From Candidatus Hydrogenedentota bacterium (GTDB taxonomy: Bacteria; Hydrogenedentota; Hydrogenedentia; Hydrogenedentales; SLHB01): 24,228 nucleotides of DNA. Of the stretch, positions 260-22,444 are shown piece after piece. The stretch lies in NCBI GenBank assembly GCA_034408725.1, contig JAWXCN010000085.1, forward strand, positions 1 to 24,228, written 5' to 3'. The notes under the pieces are model-generated. The model searched no databases. It was not told the DNA's origin and saw only the letters and a program-made list of their open reading frames with translations. A program made the position numbers and the translations under genes. Numbering within the stretch: the stretch's first letter is position 1; every line of letters begins with the position of its first letter.

Positions 260-3200
260 ATGACATTTACACGTTTCGCGCTGCTTCCAGTCCTCTTGGT
301 GGGTGTTTTGAACTGGCCGTTTGGCGTCCACTCATCATTACACAAAATCGGTTTCTGGACTACTTCCACCGCTATCGGCGCCACGGGGGAATCTAAGGGA
401 AGCCCCATCCCCGATATTCGTGTAGAACCCACGTCACTCACCTTTGATTGCGGCGGGAAAATGGCCGGAGGCGTAGCGCCAGCCGTATCGCTTTTCGCGC
501 TCTCCACCATCAAATCGTCCGGGCCGAATGCGCCGATAAACGTCCAGATTGCCCCGGAAGGCTTGCGCGCTGCCGCCGCGTTGAAATCCGCGGTTTTCAT
601 GGATGTGCCGTTGGCGGACGGTTCAATCGAAGATTTTGCGGTCACCCGGTTCGATGTGTTCACTGCGGACGCGAAGGTGGTCTCGACAGACGGCGCTACG
701 GAACGCGCGCTGCCTGTTCCCCAGGCGAGTTACTTCGACGGGCATGGCTTAAACGACCCGGACAAACACATTTTTCTGTCAATCGTCGAAGGCCGCGACG
801 TGTGGATGATGGTTTCCTCTTCGCTGATCGGCACATCGGCGCTCGGCCCGGATACAACTGAGGGCAAGAGCAGCGGCGAACATACCCTCGTGCGCGTGGA
901 GGATTTCGGAAGTTCTGGCTTCGAATGTTTCGCGGACGCGCTGCCCGAAAATGCCGCGAAGCTGGTGCGATTCGCCGAACCCTCCGCAAGCGCGGCAAAA
1001 TCGACAGACCTCCTTGAGACCGAAGTATTGGTCGACGTGGGCAACGGTCTATACAGGAACAGGTTTGGCTCAAGCTCTTCCTCCGCCACTACCTATGTTG
1101 GAAATCTTTTTGGCGCCGTCTCGTCCATCTACCGACGGGACACCAATATCAACGTCCGGATTAAACAGCTTGTCGTTTGGACAAGCGCGGACCCGTTTGG
1201 AGGCGGCGACTCTGACGAGCAACTCGATGCATATGTAACCTATAACAATAACAACCGGCCGATCGTGCAACGGGACCTTTGTCATCTGCTGGCCGATCTG
1301 GATTTCGCCGGCGGAATTGCCTACCTCGATGTCCTGTGCGACAAGGATTTTGGATACGCAGTGAGCAATATCGATACGGGCTACAGTTTCCCGCCCGTGG
1401 GATATGTATGGGACGTAGACGTGGTTGCGCATGAAACCGGCCACAATTTCGGCAGCCCGCACACCCATTGCTATTCACCGCCCATTGATTGTTGCTTTCA
1501 GCAATCAGGCTGCAGCGGTTGTCCAAACGCTGTTCCGCAGGTCGGCACTATCATGAGTTACTGCCATATCACGCCATTCCTGAGCCAACTGCGCTTCGAT
1601 ACGCGCGTCGCGACGCTCATACGCCAAAATGCCGAGGCGGCGTCTTGCATCACGCCAGTGTTAAGCGGCAACGAGTTCATCATCTACAACGAAGGCAGCG
1701 GCGCCTTGCAGGTCACATCGATGGCCCCGGTAGCCTCCGCGCCCTGGCTGACACTGTCGCCGCCGGTGCCATTTACGGTAGGAACGGGCGCGATACAAAT
1801 TGTTGAAGTAAACGTCAATTGCAACGGCGTCCCTTCCAGTGGCGCAACGGCCTTTGTGCGAATCAACTCCAACGATCCAAATGAGAGCCCATACCCCGGC
1901 GACGTGCAGATCACGGTAATTGGCGATTGCCTCCTCGAAGTATCACCCGCAGAAAACTCTTTCGACATCGAAGGAGGAACGGGAACGATAGACGTGATCG
2001 CGGAATGCGAATGGACGGCAGAATCGGACCAACCCTGGGCGCAAATCACTTCGGGAACCTCCGGGGACGGAGACGGCACGATCAATTATTCGGTCGCCGC
2101 GAATGGGACCACGGGCACGCGCACCGCGCACATCATCGTGCCGGGAAGCGCCCAGGTTCACACCATTACCCAGGAAGGCATTCCGTGTACCTATAGCATT
2201 GCCGCAACCAGCGGAACGAGTTTCCCCTCCAGCGGGGGATCCGGGACCATCGGAATGACAAGTCTCGACGGGTGCGCGTGGACCGCGCAAGCGGACAAAA
2301 CCTGGGTGAGTTTTCCCCTGGGCGCATCAGGCGTCGGCAGCGGGACCATCCACTACGACGTGAATTCAAACGGCACGTTGGCATCGCGCACCGCCAAGAT
2401 TACTGTTCCCGGAGCGGCGCAGGAAATTGTCATTACGCAGTCGGGACTTACCTGCACGTATCAATTCTCCTCGAGCAACGTCACCTATTCGGGTGCGGGT
2501 GGTTCAGGAACGGTCTCGTTACTTAGTTCTTCGCCATGTTTCTGGTCGCTGGAATCAGACCAGCCCTGGTTGCAAATCACTTCCAACGGTTCGGGAAGCG
2601 GGACCAAAGTCGTCGGGTACACCGTACTTCCGAATGAAACGCTTTCATCGAGAACGGCAAACCTCATCGTCGAAGGCACGTTGACGACATTTTTCGTGTT
2701 CCAGGGTCCAGTGGAATGCGGCTACGATTTCGATCCGAACAATGTCGTCATTTCCGCCTCGGGCGGAACCGGCGTAGTCAGCCTGGACACGCAGGCGCCT
2801 TGTGAATGGACTGCCGTATCGGACCAATCCTGGCTTACGCTCACCTCGGCGACCTCGGGGACGGGCGACGCCAACATTCAGTATTCCGTGGATGCGACAA
2901 CGTCCGGTTTCGCGCGTACCGCGCATATCTCGGTTGGAGACGTTGAATTCCTCGTAGCGCAGGAAGGGTTGTCCTGCAATTTCCAATTGTGGCCGCCGGC
3001 GACAAATTTCGGGTTCAACGGCGGCGCAGGCACGGTAAACGTTCAAGCTCTCGCCGTTTGTGATTGGACCGCTGAATCGAGCGCGGATTGGGTGACCATC
3101 ACCTCCGGCGCGAACGGCACCGGAAACGGCGCCCCTGCGTATTCGGTAGCGCCAAATCTGTCCATCGCATCGCGAATGGCGACAATCACCATTCCGGGCA

Positions 3201-11668: not shown

Positions 11669-12745
11669 ATGAAAACATGGCGCATTGCCGGCATCAATTT
11701 CGATCATCTGCACATGGGCGACAATTTGCGGATGGCGTTCAACCATCCGCAGGTGGAAATCGCCGGGATTTGCGACGAACGGCCCGAACGCATGCAGTCG
11801 TCCATCGAAAATTTTTCCATACCCGCGGACCGCGTGTTTACCGATTATCGGGCCTGCATCGAGAAAACGAAGCCCGATATAGTGCTGTTGTGTCCCGCCA
11901 CCGCGAAGCACGGCGAGTGGACCGAAAAGGTAGCGCCGTTCGGCGTAAACGTCATCATGGAAAAACCGTTTGCGGCATCGCTGGCGGAAGCGGACCGCAT
12001 GGTTGCCGCAATGGCAAAAACCCGAAAAACGCTGGCGATTAACTGGCCGCTGGCGTGGGTGGCATCGCACCGCACCGCAAAACGCATTATTGATGAAGGC
12101 ATCATTGGCCACATTCTCGAAGTGCACTACTACGATGGAAATCGCGGGCCACTCTATCATGTCGCAGACAAACTGGAAACAACTGCGGAAGAAATGCAGC
12201 GGGAGAAACCGGGCAGTTGGTTCTACAAAAAAGATCACGGCGGCGGTTCGCTCCTCGATTATCTCGGCTATGGCACGACCCTCGGCACGTGGTTTCATGG
12301 CGGGAAAAAGCCAATTGAAGTCACTTGCGTCGTTGATGAGCCTGCTGGCCTTGAAGTTGACGAACACAGCATCACCGTCGCGCGATACGCAGACGGACTA
12401 TCAAAATTTGAAACGCGCTGGGGCACGTTCACCGATCCGTGGACGCACCAACCGCAACCGAAGTGCGGGTTTGTCATCAAGGGCGCCGAAGGCACAATCA
12501 GCAGCTACGATTACGAACGCACTGTGCGCGTGCAAACCAGAGAATGCGCGGAAGGCCGCGACGTTCCCGTGGACGTTCTCGAGCCGCCATTCGAGAACCC
12601 CGTGCAATACGTCATTCATCACCTCGAATCCGGCACTGCGGTTGAAGGTCCCCTCTCCCCCGAAGTTTCCCGTATCGGACAACAGATCGTCGATTCCGCC
12701 ATCCTCAGCGCGCGCGAAAAACGCACGGTGCCTTTGTTGGCATAA
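11669..12745 (+). CDS. Gfo/Idh/MocA family oxidoreductase
   Basis: Rossmann-like N-terminus, PDIVLLCPATAKHGEW, MEKPFA and GGGSLLDYLGY. Confidence 0.9.
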   Translation: MKTWRIAGINFDHLHMGDNLRMAFNHPQVEIAGICDERPERMQSSIENFSIPADRVFTDYRACIEKTKPDIVLLCPATAKHGEWTEKVAPFGVNVIMEKPFAASLAEADRMVAAMAKTRKTLAINWPLAWVASHRTAKRIIDEGIIGHILEVHYYDGNRGPLYHVADKLETTAEEMQREKPGSWFYKKDHGGGSLLDYLGYGTTLGTWFHGGKKPIEVTCVVDEPAGLEVDEHSITVARYADGLSKFETRWGTFTDPWTHQPQPKCGFVIKGAEGTISSYDYERTVRVQTRECAEGRDVPVDVLEPPFENPVQYVIHHLESGTAVEGPLSPEVSRIGQQIVDSAILSAREKRTVPLLA

Positions 12746-13431: not shown

Positions 13432-14613
13432 TTAACGCGACGGCGACACAACGATGTAGTTGGTCCGAGTTTCCGAATCCGTACCCACCGCGGTCGTAAC
13501 GCTCAAATAAATCGTATACGCCCCGGCGGCGTTGTAAATATGGATCGGGCTTTGCGCCGTGCTCGAGCCGCCGTCCCCGAAGGTCCAAATCCAATTCAGA
13601 ATCGGCGATGTGCCTGGATCAGAGAGATCGTTGAACTGCACCAATTGACCTACTATCGGTTGGCGATCATCCGCAATGAAATTGGCGGTCGGCCCGACCG
13701 GCTGAACGTCAATGTAGTCGTTCTTCGTCTCGGTATCGCTGACGCCATCTTCCATGGTGATCGTCAACACGACTGTAAATTCGTTGACCGTCGTGTACGT
13801 GTGCGAAGGATTCTGGTCCGTGCTCGTGCCGCCATCCCCGAAGTTCCAGAACCATTGGTCAATATCACCAGTGCCAGGGTCCGACAAGTCCGTAAATTCG
13901 ACAGGCGTATTCGCGGGAGGATTCGTGGTCGACGCTATGAAGTCGGCATCAATATCGCCCGCGTCTTCCACGACGATAAAGTTCTGCTTGACCTGGGTAT
14001 CGCTCTGGGTGGACGTTTGCACGGTCAACGTGACGGAGTAGGTCCCGGGGTCTTTGTATTTGTGTGTCGGATTCTGCTGCGTGCTCTGTTTGCCGTCACC
14101 GAACGTCCATATCCAACTGACAATCGGCCCAGAGCCGGGCGCTATCGTAGACTCATCGGTAAATTGAACGTTTTCGTTGACACTCGCCAGCACGGGCGAC
14201 GCGGAAAACTCCGCGACCAGGGATGCATCGGCAGTAACGATCACTTCTTGATTCGCAACGCCAGGCGCGGAAACCGTTACGGCACCGGCATTGGAACCCG
14301 CGGCCATCCTGCTCCGGTTGATAGTTACGGTGATGACTTCTTTGTCTCCCGGACCGCTGCTGTTTCCACTACCTGGATTGACTTCTATCCATTCGTCGCC
14401 GCCTGTGCTCAGCGTGAATTCCGGCAGCGCCTGCGAGGTATAGTTTTTCGCAACGGTAAACTGCAACGTGTCAGTTTCCGATCCGAAATCAAGCGTCTTT
14501 GGGCTGATAATGTACGCGGGCAAATAACTGGGAGCGGGTGGGCAACCCATGCCCAAAATAAGGGCAAACCCCAGCATCGTAGGCCACGTCAAAAACTTCA
14601 ACGGCCGAAGCAT
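13432..14613 (-). CDS. Lipoprotein with a BACON/Ig-like domain and three PKD domains
   Basis: Lipobox LGMGC. Three W.W.FGDG..ST.Q.P.H.Y...G.Y.V.L repeats. ATG 14613 has TAAGGAG 8 nt upstream. Confidence 0.9.
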   Translation of the reverse strand: MLRPLKFLTWPTMLGFALILGMGCPPAPSYLPAYIISPKTLDFGSETDTLQFTVAKNYTSQALPEFTLSTGGDEWIEVNPGSGNSSGPGDKEVITVTINRSRMAAGSNAGAVTVSAPGVANQEVIVTADASLVAEFSASPVLASVNENVQFTDESTIAPGSGPIVSWIWTFGDGKQSTQQNPTHKYKDPGTYSVTLTVQTSTQSDTQVKQNFIVVEDAGDIDADFIASTTNPPANTPVEFTDLSDPGTGDIDQWFWNFGDGGTSTDQNPSHTYTTVNEFTVVLTITMEDGVSDTETKNDYIDVQPVGPTANFIADDRQPIVGQLVQFNDLSDPGTSPILNWIWTFGDGGSSTAQSPIHIYNAAGAYTIYLSVTTAVGTDSETRTNYIVVSPSR

Positions 14614-14682
14614 GCAATCCACTCCTTACTTGCGTGCGACACCTGGCTCGCGTGCTACCCCTAAGCCACCCTACATGCTACC

Positions 14683-14749: not shown

Positions 14750-16090
14750 TCACGCGGAAGTGCTTACCTCGATTGGGATTACTTCTGGAACGGCGCGGGG
14801 CTGGTAAACCGCCTTGAACACCAGTTCCGCCTTGCAGATATACCCGTGGTCAAGAATATCGTAGCCACGCGTCTCCAAGGCTTCCCGCAAGGACTTATAC
14901 GAATAGAAGGTGCAATGCTCGTCGGCATAAGCCCCCGGCGCCACTTTCCCGTATACCCATTCGATCAACGGCCACTGCCAACCGCCATAGTCGGGTGTGC
15001 CCAGAATCAGGGTGCCTCCCGGCCGAAGGATGCGCGTCAACTCGTCGATGAGTTTGCCGTCTTCATCCGGAATATGCTCGATAACCTCCGAGCAAATGAC
15101 GCAATCAAACTGTCCGGTGCGGAACGGTAAAATCATGCCGTTGGCCTGAAGCAGTTTCTTGTTTGTCCGGCGCATATACGCCAGCTTGTCGTGGCGCATA
15201 TCGACCCCAATGGAATGCGGAAGGTCTGCAAGGATATGGCTGCTTCCGCAACCCACGTCGCATGTCGATACAAAGGGCGGAGTGAAGCCCATGATGATGT
15301 CGTACCGCTTCCGCTGCCAGTACCGCTGGAACCAGATTCGGCTATTGTGCGCGCGCCAGTCGTAATCGGGAAACTGCACCGAATTACGGATGGTCCAGAT
15401 TCGGCGGAACAGGCGAAGGTAGTCTAGGCCAAATTTGAAAATGCGCGCGTGCGAACCGCCGGAACCGCGGGGTTCGTAGTGGAACGCGACTTCCTTGATG
15501 CGCAGGCCGCGCCCATAGGCGCGCAGCAGAATCTCGACGAGCACCACGAAATTCGTGAACTCGAGATCCATGCGCTCGAAAATGCGCTTGCGGTATAACC
15601 GGAAACCGCTGGAAAGGTCCTTCACCGGAATGGACAGACCTTTGCCAAAGAATCCGTTGAGCACCTTGCTGAGAAAATAACGGAACACTGGCTGGTCCGC
15701 GTGACCTCCGGGCACGTACCGCGACGCGATTACCACCTCGGCTTTATCCCGCGCCGCCCACAGATTCTTGATACAGTCCGTGGGGTGGGATTGATCGGCG
15801 TCCATTGTCAGGACGTAGGCGCCTCGGGCCTCGGATATGCCGCGCAGAATCGCGCGCCCATAACCGGCTTCTGATTCTCGCACATACTGGAATGGCTCCC
15901 CCATCTGAGCGACAATGGCCGGGGTGCCATCCTGGGATTCACCGTCCACCACGAGCACTTCCCACGCGATGGACATCGAGTCCAACACTTCGCGGAGGAG
16001 CGGCAGAATCCGGTAAAGATTGGGGCCTTCGTTAAGCGCCGGAATGACCACCGACAACGCGAGGGTATCCGCCTTTAATGCAGTTCTCAT
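14750..16090 (-). CDS. GT2 glycosyltransferase (polyprenol-phosphate/DPM1-like) fused to a class I SAM-dependent methyltransferase
   Basis: GT2 motifs VVIPALNE, VVDGESQDGT, MDADQSH, IASRY and DLSSGFRLY. Methyltransferase motifs DVGCGS, FDCVICSEVIEHI and LRPGG. Confidence 0.9.
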   Translation of the reverse strand: MRTALKADTLALSVVIPALNEGPNLYRILPLLREVLDSMSIAWEVLVVDGESQDGTPAIVAQMGEPFQYVRESEAGYGRAILRGISEARGAYVLTMDADQSHPTDCIKNLWAARDKAEVVIASRYVPGGHADQPVFRYFLSKVLNGFFGKGLSIPVKDLSSGFRLYRKRIFERMDLEFTNFVVLVEILLRAYGRGLRIKEVAFHYEPRGSGGSHARIFKFGLDYLRLFRRIWTIRNSVQFPDYDWRAHNSRIWFQRYWQRKRYDIIMGFTPPFVSTCDVGCGSSHILADLPHSIGVDMRHDKLAYMRRTNKKLLQANGMILPFRTGQFDCVICSEVIEHIPDEDGKLIDELTRILRPGGTLILGTPDYGGWQWPLIEWVYGKVAPGAYADEHCTFYSYKSLREALETRGYDILDHGYICKAELVFKAVYQPRAVPEVIPIEVSTSA

Positions 16091-16243: not shown

Positions 16244-17344
16244 GTGTCTCAGGATCGGGAGTGCAGGGCGGATGTTGTGCCAACTGTAGACGCGCCCTGC
16301 TTGTCTTATTTACCACGAGTCCCCCACTCCTACAAACCGGCAATCGCGTTGATCGGATGCGGCGGAATTGCCCCGTATCATCTACGAGCATACAAACGCG
16401 CGGGGTACACCGTATCGGCATTGTGCGATCATACGATTGCAAAGGCGAGCGCCCTGCGTGACGAACTTTTTCCCGATGCCGCGGTCTTCATGGACTACCG
16501 GGACATTCTTCGGCGCGACCTCGCCGACGTCGTGGATGTCGCTACGCATCCCGCACAGCGGGTCGCGATTATTGGTGACTCCCTCGCCGCCGGGAAACAC
16601 GTGCTGAGCCAAAAGCCTTTTGTGTTGGACCTGGATGACGGCGCGCGGTTGGCGGATTTGGCGGATGCGAACGGCGTGTGTCTGGTGGTCAACCAGAACG
16701 GCCGGTGGGCCCCGCATTTCTCCTATATCCGGGAAGCTGTTTCCACGGGACTTCTCGGAGCCGTATCGAGCGCGCAGCTTGCCGTGCATTGGGACCATAA
16801 CTGGACGGCGGACACCGTATTCAACGAACTCCGCCACCTCGTCCTTTACGATTTCGCGGTGCATTGGTTCGATATAGTTGCGTGCATTTTCGGTGAAAGC
16901 CCGGCAAAACAGGTATTTGCGCGCGCGATGAGGTCACCGCGCCAACGCGCAAAGCCACCACTGCTCGCGGACATCATCATCGAATTTGAAACCGGACTGG
17001 CATCCATTTCCTTCAATGCCGACACGCGATTTGGCGCCCACGATCAGACAATCGCCGCCGGCAGCGATGGCACGATTATGAGCAATGGGCCCGATCTCAA
17101 TTCGCAAACTGTGACTTTGACTACGCAACAAGGCCGATCAAGTCCCGTCTTGCAAGGCGACTGGTTCAGCAATGGGTTTCACGGAGCTATGGCTGAGCTG
17201 CTTTGCGCAATCGAAGAAAAGCGTGAACCGTGTCATTCCGCGCGCAATAATCTGCGCACCCTGGCCCTGTGTTTCGCGGCAATCGAGTCGGCCGATTCAG
17301 GGCGGCCCGTTACGCCTGGCGTTATACGCCGAATCCACGTCTGA
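16244..17344 (+). CDS. Gfo/Idh/MocA family oxidoreductase
   Basis: Motifs IALIGCGGIA, AGKHVLSQKP, NQNGRW and YDFAVHWFD. GTG start follows GAGGAG. Confidence 0.9.
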   Translation: MSQDRECRADVVPTVDAPCLSYLPRVPHSYKPAIALIGCGGIAPYHLRAYKRAGYTVSALCDHTIAKASALRDELFPDAAVFMDYRDILRRDLADVVDVATHPAQRVAIIGDSLAAGKHVLSQKPFVLDLDDGARLADLADANGVCLVVNQNGRWAPHFSYIREAVSTGLLGAVSSAQLAVHWDHNWTADTVFNELRHLVLYDFAVHWFDIVACIFGESPAKQVFARAMRSPRQRAKPPLLADIIIEFETGLASISFNADTRFGAHDQTIAAGSDGTIMSNGPDLNSQTVTLTTQQGRSSPVLQGDWFSNGFHGAMAELLCAIEEKREPCHSARNNLRTLALCFAAIESADSGRPVTPGVIRRIHV

Positions 17345-17352
17345 CCCGCTCT

Positions 17353-17376
17353 CCCTTACACAGGGGTTTTTATTTT
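17353..17376 (+). terminator. Possible weak terminator
   Basis: Short stem CCCT-TACAC-AGGG followed by GTTTTTATTTT, just after the stop. Confidence 0.4.
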
Positions 17377-17511
17377 ACACGCAACTTTGATCCTCGCGCG
17401 TGGATTCATCCAATGCGGACGTAAGTTTCTCACGGAATAATGCCTTGATGCGAAACGTCTGGCCGGCCAAGGGCACGGATGAAATGGAACGGCCGGAAAG
17501 GGACAGCGGGG

Positions 17512-17598
17512 TTGCGGGGCGTGACAGTGAAACAAGTCCTCTTCTTCGTTGTACTGTTGGCGAGTTTAATTGCGGTGCAACATTGGCTGGGTCGATAG
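17512..17598 (+). CDS. Small hydrophobic protein A, 28 aa, MRGVTVKQVLFFVVLLASLIAVQHWLGR (an alternative in-frame ATG at 17479 would give 39 aa)
   Basis: TTG start after GAAAGGGA. Single TM-like segment. Paralogous to 17641-17724. Confidence 0.7.
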   Translation: MRGVTVKQVLFFVVLLASLIAVQHWLGR

Positions 17599-17640
17599 CA
17601 CCCCAAAGGTTGCAGACAGGGGCCGGAAAGGAGCGGGACA

Positions 17641-17724
17641 ATGAACGGATTCAGCGTTAAACACGTTCTGTTCTTTGTGGGATTGTTCGCACTACTATTT
17701 GCCGTCCAGGCGTTCGCACGTTAG
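17641..17724 (+). CDS. Small hydrophobic protein B, 27 aa, MNGFSVKHVLFFVGLFALLFAVQAFAR
   Basis: ATG with AAAGGAG 7 nt upstream. 15 of the first 23 residues are identical to protein A. Its stop overlaps the stop of the convergent YfhO gene (TTAG). Confidence 0.78.
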   Translation: MNGFSVKHVLFFVGLFALLFAVQAFAR

Positions 17725-20045
17725 CGAATCCGCCTCCGCAGCAACACAAGTGCGAACACGAGCATAGCCACCAGCGTCAGGCTCGACACCACCAGTCCAA
17801 TCCGAAATGACGCCGGATGGTACGTAAACTCTACGCGATGCGGGCCGCCTTCCAAGAACACGCCGCGGAATGCATGGTAAACCGGAAAGATGTTTGCAGG
17901 TTTTCCATCAATCGTGGCCTTCCATCCGGGATAGTACGCATCGGCCAACACCAACAACGAATCCCCGTTCGCTTGCACATCGAGCACGACGCGCGTGCTA
18001 GAGTACGCAGAAATTCTCGCATCGCCCTGCGGCGCGTCCTCGCTCAGCGCGGGAATTCCTTCCGGCAGGTCGGCTTGCAATGCGAGCGCCACTGAGTCCG
18101 GCGTGAACGATTCACTGCGCATGATTTCGAGCATTTTTTCAGTCGAGTCGAGAAGTTCGAGCCGGCCGACCAACCGGGCACGCGGCAATGCGCGAAGGTT
18201 TCGATAGACCGCAAGACCATCGCGCTCCGTCATATATTCGAACCATTCCGGATGCTCGTCCAATGGAAACAGTGGCGGATACCCCCTGTCGTGCAAATAA
18301 TATTCGTTGGAATAGAGCGGCTCCGCGGCTATCCAAACGTCCGTGGCCAGCTTTGTCTGAAATGTCTTTATCCGCGCGGGATAAAGCCCATCATATCCAA
18401 GCCACTCTTCGATGCCGTACGGCGAAAAGGTGCCGGACACCACGCCGCCTTCCCCGATTCCGAATCGGGTGGGTACGGGAAACTCCTGAAGATATTTCGT
18501 TAGCGCCGTATCGGGGAAGACGTCCTGCTTACGCATGGCCGGATTCATACCGAGGTTTGCGATGAGCAAATCAACGGAAAGCGCCGCGACCAGCAACGCC
18601 GCAACCAGCCCCGCCCTGCGCTCGAGGTTTCCCACGACAACAACCGCGAGCATCATGACCGCGAGCAGTATCGCAATGACAATCTGCCGGTTGACATAAT
18701 CAACGTGACCGCTCATCTCAATCACAGGCGCGTCGAAGGACATCAACGCAAGAATGAAAACAAGGGGGATGGCTAGCGCGGGTACGAGCGGCATCAGCCC
18801 GCGGACTGAACGCGGGGAAGTTAGCCACCGTTCAACGCCCCGAGCGCCGAACAGTATGGCCGCAAATACCGGAAATCCAACAAAATAGATTTTAAGGGTT
18901 GAACTAAACGGAGGAATCGCGTCGAAAAAGCGTAGTTCATCGATATCAATTGCGAGCAGCATGCAGGCAAGCGTCGCTCCGACCAGTGCCCAAAAATGCG
19001 CTCGGCCTTCCGTGGCCCGCAGCGGAAGCCCTCCGAACCATGCCATCGCCCATACGGGGAGGCCGGTGTAAAACATCATGATGATGTTTGAATTGAGAAG
19101 GCCGGCGCCCCAATACGTCGATTCAGGAAAGGTGCCATAGTACCTCGGTATCCAAAGCGCGCTCAGTGTGCTCGCGAGGATTGTCGGTTCGGAGATTCCC
19201 CCGTGGCGCACCGTATACGTCAGGCTCTGCCGGATGTATTCGACCAGCGGCAAAACCTGGACTGACGCGACGAGCAGCGCAACGACCCATGCGCACGCCA
19301 TTGTGCCGAGAGCCTTGGCCACCCGCTGCCGGTCCGACGCCAAGCCCGCAACACGAAGCAGAAAATACACGCCTACGCCGAACGCCATGGTGAACGCGGT
19401 TTCAGGATGACCCGCAAAAAGCATTAGCATGCCGGATACGGCTACGAGCGCTCCACCAACACGCCACCTCCCCTCCGCGACACGCTCCGTTCCGAGGAAC
19501 AACAACGGCAACCAGGCGGACACATCGGGCAAAGACCAATACGCCCAAACCATGTTGTAGCTGCACAACATCCACGCCACCGACGCAAAACGGGCCGCGT
19601 GCGTGCCCATGCGCAGGCCGCGCGCGCAAATGTACGCGGTTATTCCGCACAGCCACAATTTCAGGAGTATGTACAGCGATATCGCGGTTGAAAGATCGAA
19701 TACAGCATGCAGGAGCCGTGGCGGATAAAAGATCGCAGTCTGCGCGTTTGCAATCAGCGGCATGCCGGCGAGTTCATACCGGTTCCACAGCGGCCAGTTC
19801 CCCTCGTCGAATTCCATCTGCGTCAATGCGTAATAGGGATAAAATGCGGCGACAATATCGGGCATCAACCGATTGCTTGGCGCCTGCCAATCCTCCGGCA
19901 CATAGTTCGACCAAGGTTTGGATTGAAAAAGAATGTCCGCGGGCGACAGCACTTCGCCCCGGAGAAAGAAGCCCGGAAAGGCGAGCGCAAGCAACGCAAG
20001 CAACAGCAGACCCTGAATCGCGAATTCTCGTGCGTGCCGCTTCAT
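17721..20045 (-). CDS. YfhO-family multi-pass membrane protein (GT-C type glycosyltransferase)
   Basis: Motifs DIVAAFYPY, PLWNRYELAGMPLIANAQTAIFYP and AGHPE, many TM segments, and a C-terminal LVLADAYYPGWKATIDG...HRVEFTYHP. Confidence 0.88.
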   Translation of the reverse strand: MKRHAREFAIQGLLLLALLALAFPGFFLRGEVLSPADILFQSKPWSNYVPEDWQAPSNRLMPDIVAAFYPYYALTQMEFDEGNWPLWNRYELAGMPLIANAQTAIFYPPRLLHAVFDLSTAISLYILLKLWLCGITAYICARGLRMGTHAARFASVAWMLCSYNMVWAYWSLPDVSAWLPLLFLGTERVAEGRWRVGGALVAVSGMLMLFAGHPETAFTMAFGVGVYFLLRVAGLASDRQRVAKALGTMACAWVVALLVASVQVLPLVEYIRQSLTYTVRHGGISEPTILASTLSALWIPRYYGTFPESTYWGAGLLNSNIIMMFYTGLPVWAMAWFGGLPLRATEGRAHFWALVGATLACMLLAIDIDELRFFDAIPPFSSTLKIYFVGFPVFAAILFGARGVERWLTSPRSVRGLMPLVPALAIPLVFILALMSFDAPVIEMSGHVDYVNRQIVIAILLAVMMLAVVVVGNLERRAGLVAALLVAALSVDLLIANLGMNPAMRKQDVFPDTALTKYLQEFPVPTRFGIGEGGVVSGTFSPYGIEEWLGYDGLYPARIKTFQTKLATDVWIAAEPLYSNEYYLHDRGYPPLFPLDEHPEWFEYMTERDGLAVYRNLRALPRARLVGRLELLDSTEKMLEIMRSESFTPDSVALALQADLPEGIPALSEDAPQGDARISAYSSTRVVLDVQANGDSLLVLADAYYPGWKATIDGKPANIFPVYHAFRGVFLEGGPHRVEFTYHPASFRIGLVVSSLTLVAMLVFALVLLRRRIR

Positions 20046-21388: not shown

Positions 21389-21611
21389 TTCGCACACTCC
21401 TCGAGGGGATGATCTGGACCCCGTGGAAAATAAAGAATACGTTTGGCAGGTACAACGCCCAGCCCGGGCGACCCCCGTTTCCCCGCATGTCAGTGGTAAA
21501 GAGCCTAGTGTCTTTGCTCTGCGGATTCAAGGAAAACGAGCTTTTTATTTTTGCGAAATTGTGGGCAGCCAAATCGGTTACGATTGGCACGGCCGAAGGT
21601 CAACGGAGATC

Positions 21612-22172
21612 ATGGTGCGTTGTTTTATTGCGATTGAATTGCCAGAATCGATCCGGGCAGCCCTCGCTTGTTGGATTGAGCAACTGCGCACGACATCGAC
21701 TCGCGCGACCTGGGCCCGTGCGGAACATATGCACCTTACACTGCGTTTTTTGGGGAATGTGCCGGAGGATCAAATCTCTTCCATCGATGCGCAACTTCGC
21801 GCTAGCCTTATCACGGTTTCGCCATTCATGCTCTCGATCGGGGGCATCGGCGCGTTTCCCTCTCCCGCAAAGCCCAATGTTGTGTGGGCCGGCGTTCAGT
21901 CGCCGGATGGAACGCTGCTCAACTTGCAGTCTCTCTGCGAAAACGCTGCGCGTTCGGCCGGTTTGCCGCCCGAAACCCGCGCATTTCACCCTCACATTAC
22001 GCTGGCCCGCATCAAGGAGGCGGAACCGGCCACGCAATTGGCGTGCGCGATTGATGCCATGCGTGAACGCATGGTGGATGAATTCGAGGCAACAGCCGTG
22101 TCATTATTTGAAAGCAAACTTACCGCGCATGGACCTGTTCACACGCGGTTGCAGGAGTACCCATTCAAGTGA
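21612..22172 (+). CDS. thpR: RNA 2',3'-cyclic phosphodiesterase (2H phosphoesterase, LigT/ThpR)
   Basis: N-terminus MVRCFIAIELP and two HxT motifs (HLTLRFLG, FHPHITLAR). ATG follows GGAG. Confidence 0.92.
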   Translation: MVRCFIAIELPESIRAALACWIEQLRTTSTRATWARAEHMHLTLRFLGNVPEDQISSIDAQLRASLITVSPFMLSIGGIGAFPSPAKPNVVWAGVQSPDGTLLNLQSLCENAARSAGLPPETRAFHPHITLARIKEAEPATQLACAIDAMRERMVDEFEATAVSLFESKLTAHGPVHTRLQEYPFK

Positions 22173-22444
22173 ATCTTTCAGGACTCATCCTCGGCGCGGT
22201 TTACAGCGGCATCACCCTCTATATGTTGCTGGTGCTGCTGCGCTGGCTTGGACCCTATATTCAACTCGATTTTTATGATTCGCGCCTCCGCTGGATCGCT
22301 GCAATCGTGGACCCCTTGCTGCGCTTTATCCGGAAAATTGCCCCGGCCGTCGGTCCGGTAGACCTCGGCCCGCTGATCGCGCTGCTATTGCTATGGTTCG
22401 CCCGAACGGTCGCCGTGCGCGCGATTGCGGGCAGTCAGTTATAA
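22169..22444 (+). CDS. YggT family membrane protein
   Basis: 91 aa with Y..LVLLRWL, DPLLRFIRK and VDLGPLIA. GTGA overlap with the thpR stop. Confidence 0.85.
   Translation: MNLSGLILGAVYSGITLYMLLVLLRWLGPYIQLDFYDSRLRWIAAIVDPLLRFIRKIAPAVGPVDLGPLIALLLLWFARTVAVRAIAGSQL

Follow-up and report, generated by a model that had tools for sequence, protein, structure and literature searches.

Two short open reading frames in an apparently intergenic gap

A stretch of 24,228 nucleotides (nt) from Candidatus Hydrogenedentota bacterium (GenBank assembly GCA_034408725.1, contig JAWXCN010000085.1, positions 1 to 24,228; in the following, this whole stretch is called the window) carries two short open reading frames (ORFs), here named pep1 and pep2. 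They lie one behind the other in the gap between a Gfo/Idh/MocA oxidoreductase gene and a convergent YfhO gene (Table 1). The translation of pep1 is M/L-RGVTVKQVLFFVVLLASLIAVQHWLGR and that of pep2 is MNGFSVKHVLFFVGLFALLFAVQAFAR. Both ORFs are preceded by the same 11-mer, GGCCGGAAAGG, which occurs at these two places only when both strands of the window are considered. With the start counted as methionine, 15 of the 23 N-terminal residues are identical between the two peptides. The codons differ at 12 of the 14 identical residues that follow the start, and are the same only at K7 (AAA) and F11 (TTC). The tandem pair, its coordinates, the repeated leader, the residue identity and the count of synonymous codons are all as reported in a preliminary description of this DNA, which had been made from the sequence of the window.

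Both peptides share the same layout. A short polar N-terminus of the form M-x-G-[VF]-[ST]-x-K-[HQ] leads into an apolar stretch of about 14-18 residues, which contains the small-residue motif A17-xxx-A21. Behind this stretch stand a polar H or Q and a C-terminal residue that is mostly basic. The mean Kyte-Doolittle hydropathy over residues 9-22 is 3.0-3.2, and the grand average of hydropathy (GRAVY) is 1.20 for pep1 and 1.40 for pep2. We predict that pep1 and pep2 are single-pass micro-proteins of the cytoplasmic membrane.

Table 1. Coordinates of the peptide locus, its neighbours in the window and the locus of the candidate sigma factor
Feature	Position	Strand	Remarks
pep1	17512-17598, including stop	+	28 codons, TTG start, TAG at 17596-17598; predicted single-helix micro-protein
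pep2	17641-17724, including stop	+	27 codons, ATG start, TAG at 17722-17724; predicted single-helix micro-protein
Leader 1, GGCCGGAAAGG	17491-17501	+	contains the pep1 Shine-Dalgarno sequence; 10 nt from the pep1 start
Leader 2, GGCCGGAAAGG, extended to AGGAG	17621-17631	+	contains the pep2 Shine-Dalgarno sequence; 9 nt before the start
ECF-sigma-type promoter-like site, GCAACTTT-N13-GGATTC	17381-17407	+	-35 with AAC and T-tract; -10 GGNAT
Second bipartite motif, GAAT[AG]-N16/17-CGTC	17435-17459	+	in 13 of 13 genomes, 75-96 nt before the pep1 start
Terminator-like hairpin with T-run	17352-17376	+	just past the oxidoreductase stop; 1 site against 0.8 expected in shuffles
Gfo/Idh/MocA oxidoreductase gene	16244-17344	+	directly upstream of the peptides
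YfhO gene	17721-20045	-	convergent with the peptides
GT2-methyltransferase fusion gene	14750-16090	-	neighbour in the window
PKD-domain gene	13432-14622	-	in the window
Second Gfo/Idh/MocA gene	11669-12745		in the window
Candidate sigma factor locus (window genome G000, contig C175, locus L113)	1279-2705		promoter site approximately 1279-1305; sigma gene 1351/1456-2028; next gene 2049-2705
ECF, extracytoplasmic function; GT2, family-2 glycosyltransferase.

The last four bases of pep2 (17721-17724) are common with the stop end of the convergent YfhO gene. Here, the TAG of pep2 on the plus strand and the TAA of YfhO on the minus strand overlap, and the same arrangement is seen in one further genome (G003). 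Read-through from either gene would be antisense to the other.

Longer frames at the locus were rejected. A 39-residue form of pep1, starting at the in-frame ATG at 17479, was discarded because the extension is not conserved and relatives have no in-frame start at this place. An ORF of 86 residues (17400-17660, plus strand) and one of 88 residues (17375-17641, minus strand) are spurious, as the equivalent frames in relatives have stops or a high ratio of nonsynonymous to synonymous differences (pN/pS). These two ORFs overlap the peptides and are what an ORF list would display.

Searches for a known family

In Pfam and NCBIfam, neither pep1, pep2 nor the 39-residue form found a match at E-values up to 10, and Rfam contained no RNA family that matches the locus. 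In a homologue search made with pep1 only, its 49-residue stop-to-stop frame gave no candidate among proteins of 26-86 residues. Ten peptide sequences from five genomes were absent from a collection of 15 billion proteins by exact look-up, and have therefore been missed by gene callers. A language-model Atlas returned generic small membrane proteins only (scores 0.82-0.85, best feature score 0.85); such scores are at chance level, since shuffled proteins give a first hit of at least 0.8 a third of the time. Full-text literature searches, which did not extend to supplements or small-ORF catalogues, turned up no paper on small proteins or on sigma factors in Hydrogenedentota. The preliminary description had not recognised the family, in agreement with this lack of a Pfam, NCBIfam, Atlas or exact-protein match.

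Distribution among Hydrogenedentota genomes

Relatives of the peptides were initially searched with a two-row profile. With this profile, the pair was recovered, in the same tandem arrangement, from each of the four remaining genomes of the window genus and from one genome in another genus. Wider profiles were then used for the counts. Of the 54 genomes in the family, 13 carry the peptides, and these belong to three genera: the window genus g1 (5 of 5 genomes), g6 (5 of 6) and g9 (3 of 3). The g6 exception is a genome of 72% completeness, in which the oxidoreductase also had no match. The tandem pair is present in 10 genomes and a single copy in three more; the g9 genomes have one peptide gene, which encodes 30 residues. 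The window genome contains no further copies beyond pep1 and pep2.

Extending the scan to the 133 genomes of the order yielded convincing matches in the same 13 genomes, together with two marginal matches within long open frames and one at an E-value of 0.0015. Likewise, the same 13 of 135 genomes were found in the phylum at E-values up to 0.001. Among public genome contigs, the two-row alignment retrieved two loci, both from Candidatus Hydrogenedentota, and public metagenomes provided one contig that is 100% identical over pep2. In both of these collections the pattern reaches close relatives only. The peptide family thus appears to be confined to three genera of one Hydrogenedentota family.

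Both ORFs evolve as protein-coding genes

The preliminary description had proposed that the ORFs encode paralogous hydrophobic peptides under purifying selection, and that a search for homologues in related genomes combined with dN/dS would bear on this. We find the frame preserved in 12 other genomes. In the 10 genomes with the pair, the start column of pep1 is occupied by TTG (once), GTG (four times) or ATG (five times), and pep2 starts with ATG throughout. The stops of pep1, pep2 and the single-copy form are in register across the relatives. A Shine-Dalgarno sequence of the GAAAGG or AGGAG type precedes 10 of 10 starts in g1, 7 of 10 in g6 and 3 of 3 in g9; the three g6 starts at which it is weak or missing are those of pep1 in G009, G052 and G051. 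Where the relatives have the GAAAGG type, it is located 8-10 nt ahead of the pep1 start.

Pairwise Nei-Gojobori comparisons gave pooled pN/pS values of 0.34, 0.35, 0.24 and 0.30 in four ortholog sets, with synonymous sites that are often saturated. Differences are most frequent at the third codon position, followed by the first and then the second. In a six-frame control, the peptide frame had the lowest pN/pS in each of the four sets, and it was the sole frame free of stops in all four. Because start column, stop and Shine-Dalgarno sequence are kept, pN/pS is low and no other frame is stop-free, we conclude that pep1 and pep2 behave as translated genes under purifying selection, as had been proposed. 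The pair represents a real, previously uncalled and lineage-restricted family of small proteins.

Within one genome, the proportion of synonymous differences (pS) between pep1 and pep2 amounts to 0.62-0.98. The duplication is old, since synonymous sites between the paralogues are saturated, and since length and C-terminus are kept in a paralogue-specific form in two genera. In g1 and g6, pep1 has 27-28 residues and an aromatic-rich C-terminus (endings HWLGR, HWLTR and HFVMR), and pep2 has 27 residues and a small-x-small ending. The small-x-small motif is followed by 1-3 residues and the stop, as in AFA-R, ALA-Q, AFA-H, ALA-N, SLA-Y and SVA-EAY. Some pep2 orthologues end in SLV-R or SVT-H, which fit the small-x-small rule poorly. 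The orthologue alignment has H or Q at position 8 and H, Q or Y at position 23. The spacer between the two cistrons measures 26-42 nt across the genomes and 42 nt in the window. A prediction of the pep1-pep2 complex scored 0.06 against a mark of 0.32, for chains that are below the 30-residue calibration of the tool, and thus speaks neither for nor against pairing. Loci of outgroups showed no synteny downstream of the oxidoreductase gene, so that no non-coding ancestor sequence could be traced.

An ECF-type promoter-like site precedes the peptides in all 13 genomes

An alignment of the spacer between the oxidoreductase gene and the peptides revealed two bipartite motifs as conserved islands upstream of pep1 in 13 of 13 genomes. 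The first, which the preliminary description had not seen, consists of G[CGA]AAC[CT]TT, 15 nt and an AT within GGNAT, with equal spacing in all 13 loci. It is located 122-164 nt ahead of pep1 or of the single peptide gene. Its form resembles the promoters of extracytoplasmic function (ECF) sigma factors. According to excerpts of PMC5758882, these typically have AAC in the -35 element, in some cases followed by a T-tract; the -10 element is group-specific, and the spacer measures 14-17 bp. The site in the window agrees with this description in its AAC, in a -10 element that would be group-specific and in a spacer within the given range. A scan for the sigma-70 consensus detected no site in 17250-17850.

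The window genome contains 29 genes with sigma-70 region 2, and exactly one of them has the first motif upstream. This gene, on contig C175, encodes an ECF sigma factor (TIGR02937, 96 bits against a cut-off of 43). It has a match in 52 of the 54 family genomes, always as a single copy save for one weak second match. Among 30 orthologues examined, 28 have G[GCA]AAC[CT]TT-N15-AT upstream, at the same distance and with fixed spacing; in the remaining two the spacing is one base shorter (14 nt). Many ECF sigma factors control their own synthesis, as stated in the same excerpts (PMC5758882). The occurrence of the motif ahead of the candidate cognate sigma gene in these 28 orthologues is what autoregulation would require. 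The gene that follows the C175 sigma gene encodes a membrane protein with a hydrophobic segment and a weak resemblance to an anti-sigma factor.

We then built a matrix of 13 informative positions solely from the sites upstream of the 28 sigma gene orthologues. With this matrix, the window site scores 19.5 bits, and only 9 of 10.3 million genome positions score as high. The 13 peptide loci reach 13.6-20.8 bits, compared with a 99th percentile of 7.5 and a maximum of 13.6 in 1000 random windows of 250 nt. Genome scans with simple regular expressions for either motif remained at noise level, and only the sigma-derived matrix was informative. Other top sites are located upstream of a DUF1501 gene, two lipoprotein-like genes, and genes of the MotA/TolQ/ExbB-like, PilZ, S41 peptidase and OmpA families. 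A site of at least 12 bits is also found upstream of 17 of 30 TolQ-like orthologues and of 9 of 29 orthologues of one lipoprotein-like protein. Our inference is that an envelope-related ECF regulon includes the peptides.

The second motif combines the common CGTC -10 element with GAAT in the -35 element in place of AAC. It found no match upstream of any of the 29 sigma-70 region-2 genes, and in g9 it directly abuts the ECF-type site. This motif could be another ECF-like promoter, a promoter for a different sigma factor, or an element of the 5' untranslated region or an operator.

Genomic neighbourhood

The Gfo/Idh/MocA oxidoreductase gene is the only constant neighbour of the peptides and lies directly upstream on the same strand in 13 of 13 genomes. 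Single-copy orthologues of this gene are present in 19 of the 54 family genomes. Six of these, outside g1, g6 and g9 and with 54-58% identity, have no peptide ORF downstream, which means that the enzyme does not require the peptides. For the same reason, the constant place of the peptides behind this gene most likely marks the site at which they originated and not a functional partnership with the enzyme. In the window, the terminator-like hairpin would keep the transcript of the oxidoreductase gene apart from the peptide unit; the evidence for it is weak, and the relatives show no conservation of it.

In g6 and g9, a second Gfo/Idh/MocA gene stands immediately ahead of the oxidoreductase gene. 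In the window genus, the PKD-domain gene and the GT2-methyltransferase fusion gene are found between the two Gfo/Idh/MocA genes, which points to an insertion or rearrangement. The GT2-methyltransferase protein has 446 residues, with a family-2 glycosyltransferase (GT2) domain at residues 13-173 and an S-adenosylmethionine-dependent methyltransferase domain at approximately 275-413. Further along the window, a 289-residue ORF at 21409-22278 on the plus strand has no Pfam match at E-values up to 0.001.

On the downstream side, most genomes have a convergent neighbouring gene, whose identity varies from genome to genome; this orientation applies to the window and is clear in at least six others. 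Two g6 genomes (G048 and G049) have overlapping ORFs on both strands, which makes the downstream orientation ambiguous. A clear same-strand gene follows only in g9, 57-112 nt from the single peptide gene. At two of these loci (L093 and L094) it encodes an 852-residue protein with an N-terminal hydrophobic segment. Co-transcription of the peptide with its downstream gene is conceivable only in g9. The idea that the peptides are leader peptides of the downstream gene was rejected, because the next gene is convergent in most genomes.

YfhO is the downstream gene in two of the 13 genomes only, the window genome and G003. The GT2-methyltransferase gene occurs near the locus in four of the five g1 genomes and in no others (4 of 13 overall). 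Neither gene was present in the flanks examined in g6 and g9, up to 9 kb on each side. The link to a GT2/YfhO machinery that had been suggested from the window is thus not borne out in the relatives.

Discussion

Taken together, we consider it probable, if by no means assured, that the locus encodes an ECF-controlled bicistronic pair of single-pass membrane micro-proteins, which tune a larger membrane protein or the membrane under envelope stress. In this model, a small transcription unit of its own would occupy the gap that separates the oxidoreductase gene from the convergent YfhO gene. Its parts would be an ECF-sigma-type promoter, about 100 nt of 5' leader, and two cistrons with separate Shine-Dalgarno sequences. 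The ECF sigma factor encoded on C175, which is found family-wide, would transcribe the peptides as part of an envelope-related regulon. The peptides would then be inserted in the inner membrane. There, probably joined in a hetero-oligomer of both paralogues, they may bind and tune a larger membrane protein, or act on the membrane itself, during envelope stress. Joint action of the two paralogues is suggested because both have persisted, each with a signature of its own, from a time before the two genera split, and because both carry A17-xxx-A21, a kind of motif that packs helices. Among the roles listed in the preliminary description, that of a small regulator of a membrane protein fits best and is favoured by the ECF-type promoter-like site; that of an anchor for GT2 or YfhO did not survive, as the linkage is not conserved.

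Several observations weigh against this model. Translation and regulation are both read from sequence alone, in an organism known only from metagenome assemblies, and the 13 peptide-bearing genomes are kin and not independent samples. The promoter call draws on sequence similarity and on an assumed autoregulation of the sigma factor. Its -10 element, GGNAT, differs from the common CGT type, and the g9 site, at 13.6 bits, equals the best of the 1000 random windows. The second motif, placed between the ECF-type site and the ORFs, could be the real promoter. The list of regulon members stems from the matrix scan only, and two of the nine best sites seem to fall by chance within coding sequence, where there is no gene for them to control. 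In the oxidoreductase tree, the backbone is not resolved, and a single origin of the peptide-bearing set is recovered in 16% of bootstrap trees. Finally, the hetero-oligomer and the protein target are our inference only.

The proposed class of proteins has well-established members in enterobacteria. MgrB, MgtS, AcrZ and PmrR are single-pass small membrane proteins that are induced by a stress regulator and act by binding a larger membrane protein. Like pep1 and pep2, they have fewer than 50 residues and one hydrophobic helix and were overlooked by annotation. In contrast to these proteins, with which they share no sequence relationship, pep1 and pep2 come from another phylum and are two paralogues with predicted co-transcription. 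Another case from E. coli is MzrA, which has about 127 residues and a periplasmic domain; it is far larger than the peptides and not homologous to them. MzrA (formerly EcfM) is described in excerpts of PMC2727453 as a sigma-E-linked inner-membrane modulator of EnvZ. The resemblance to our model lies in a membrane protein that is linked to an envelope-stress regulon under ECF control and tunes another membrane signalling protein; in the present case, the ECF link is predicted from the promoter motif only.

A different view of the locus is that of type I toxin-like genes, in which tandem duplicates, common at such loci, encode small hydrophobic membrane-damaging peptides and an antisense or overlapping small RNA restrains their translation. 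Type I toxins such as TisB, Ibs, Ldr, ShoB and Hok often have stress-induced promoters. The peptides agree with them in length (27 and 28 residues, under the approximate limit of 60), in their extreme hydrophobicity and basic C-terminal residue, and in their narrow taxonomic range and tandem paralogy. They also lie in a seemingly intergenic gap that annotation has overlooked, and a transcript reading through from the convergent YfhO gene would, in the window, run antisense to pep2. However, this convergent arrangement is limited to two of the 13 genomes. With a spacer of 26-42 nt and a single promoter-like site ahead of them, the two ORFs form a bicistronic unit, not two complete modules with their own regulators. 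Strong Shine-Dalgarno sequences are kept before most starts. The 301-nt region folds no better than shuffled sequences on either strand (z of -0.41, and +1.20 for the minus strand). Neither an antitoxin RNA nor a structured leader was thus detected at the locus, where Rfam also found no RNA family. The spacer alignment contains no conserved candidate for an antisense promoter outside the ORFs, the Shine-Dalgarno sequences and the upstream motifs. The paralogue-specific signatures, which are kept across genera, suggest two distinct roles. We regard toxins of this type as unlikely; a toxic effect of the peptides would be compatible with these observations.

Slightly less likely again is a role as accessory or membrane-anchor subunits for the upstream Gfo/Idh/MocA oxidoreductase, or for the enzyme pair, by which a soluble dehydrogenase would be tethered to the membrane. 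The enzyme gene is the sole constant neighbour of the peptides, and its N-terminus has no recognisable signal or membrane segment. The variable downstream gene indicates that the junction between enzyme and peptides survived rearrangements, and the second Gfo/Idh/MocA gene immediately ahead in g6 and g9 would supply the pair. Nevertheless, the six orthologues in other genera do without a peptide ORF. A separate conserved promoter-like site stands between enzyme and peptides in 13 of 13 genomes, joined in the window by the terminator-like hairpin. Synteny in three related genera can be plain descent.

The ECF link and the signal-peptide-like build of the peptides could also be combined in a feedback device, specific to this lineage, within an envelope-stress pathway. 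Here, ECF-induced signal-peptide-like peptides, born behind the oxidoreductase gene and then duplicated, would set the strength or duration of the ECF response. To this end they would occupy intramembrane or signal-peptide proteases, or an anti-sigma factor that is bound to the membrane. We consider this scenario improbable. We give marginally less credence to a related one, in which the peptides, and pep2 especially, are signal-peptide mimics. By occupying signal peptidase, signal-peptide peptidase or a site-2 protease, they would exert feedback on the proteolytic cascade by which the ECF sigma factor is set free. In pep2, the n-, h- and c-regions of a Sec signal peptide are present, mostly together with its small-x-small ending, and the locus stands behind an ECF-type promoter-like site. 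In E. coli, the site-2 protease RseP activates sigma-E and also clears signal peptides, as excerpts of PMC8144685 state. Unlike a Sec signal peptide, pep2 orthologues and the single-copy form have a conserved stop 1-3 residues after the motif and no mature domain. pep1 has no such ending, the pep2 orthologues that end in SLV-R or SVT-H fit poorly, and any short single-pass peptide somewhat resembles a signal peptide.

The least probable are the two remaining explanations. Anchor subunits for the neighbouring GT2, which lacks a transmembrane segment, or for a YfhO glycosylation machinery, by analogy with DPM2/DPM3, would suit the place of the peptides between these genes in the window; apart from the scarcity of both neighbours in the relatives, YfhO is itself a large polytopic membrane protein and needs no anchor. 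That the locus is a conserved RNA or DNA element with incidental open frames might be imagined in a G+C-rich region with several overlapping open frames in the window, but the codon-position pattern and the pN/pS of 0.24-0.35 are seen in the peptide frame only, the other five frames have stops in relatives, the start column switches between TTG, GTG and ATG behind a Shine-Dalgarno sequence in most cases, and neither an RNA family nor an unusual fold was found.

Pairs of small single-helix proteins are also known as subunits of larger complexes. Cytochrome b559 contains a heterodimeric pair of such subunits, PsbE and PsbF. Like pep1 and pep2, these are small single-helix proteins from adjacent genes with polar residues near the membrane faces. 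In contrast, positions 8 and 23 of the peptides, with their H or Q, are not invariant histidines, which makes haem ligation unlikely, and there is no photosystem context. A two-peptide or leaderless bacteriocin, which would call for amphipathic cationic peptides close to genes for export or immunity, was considered as well and rejected: the core of the peptides is uniformly apolar, and no conserved transporter or immunity-like neighbour accompanies them.

As a class, stress-induced single-pass micro-proteins are already established, so that the pair is of a familiar kind and introduces no new principle. What the locus adds is a well-supported small-protein family that had not been called, in a phylum for which metagenomes are the only source. 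Comparative signals, namely the start column, the divergence at synonymous sites and the shared promoter motif, together give the coding status of the pair and its likely regulator without culture. With the motif shared between the peptides and the C175 sigma gene, they would also offer, for a core ECF sigma factor in this family of Hydrogenedentota, a first candidate regulon together with a promoter consensus.

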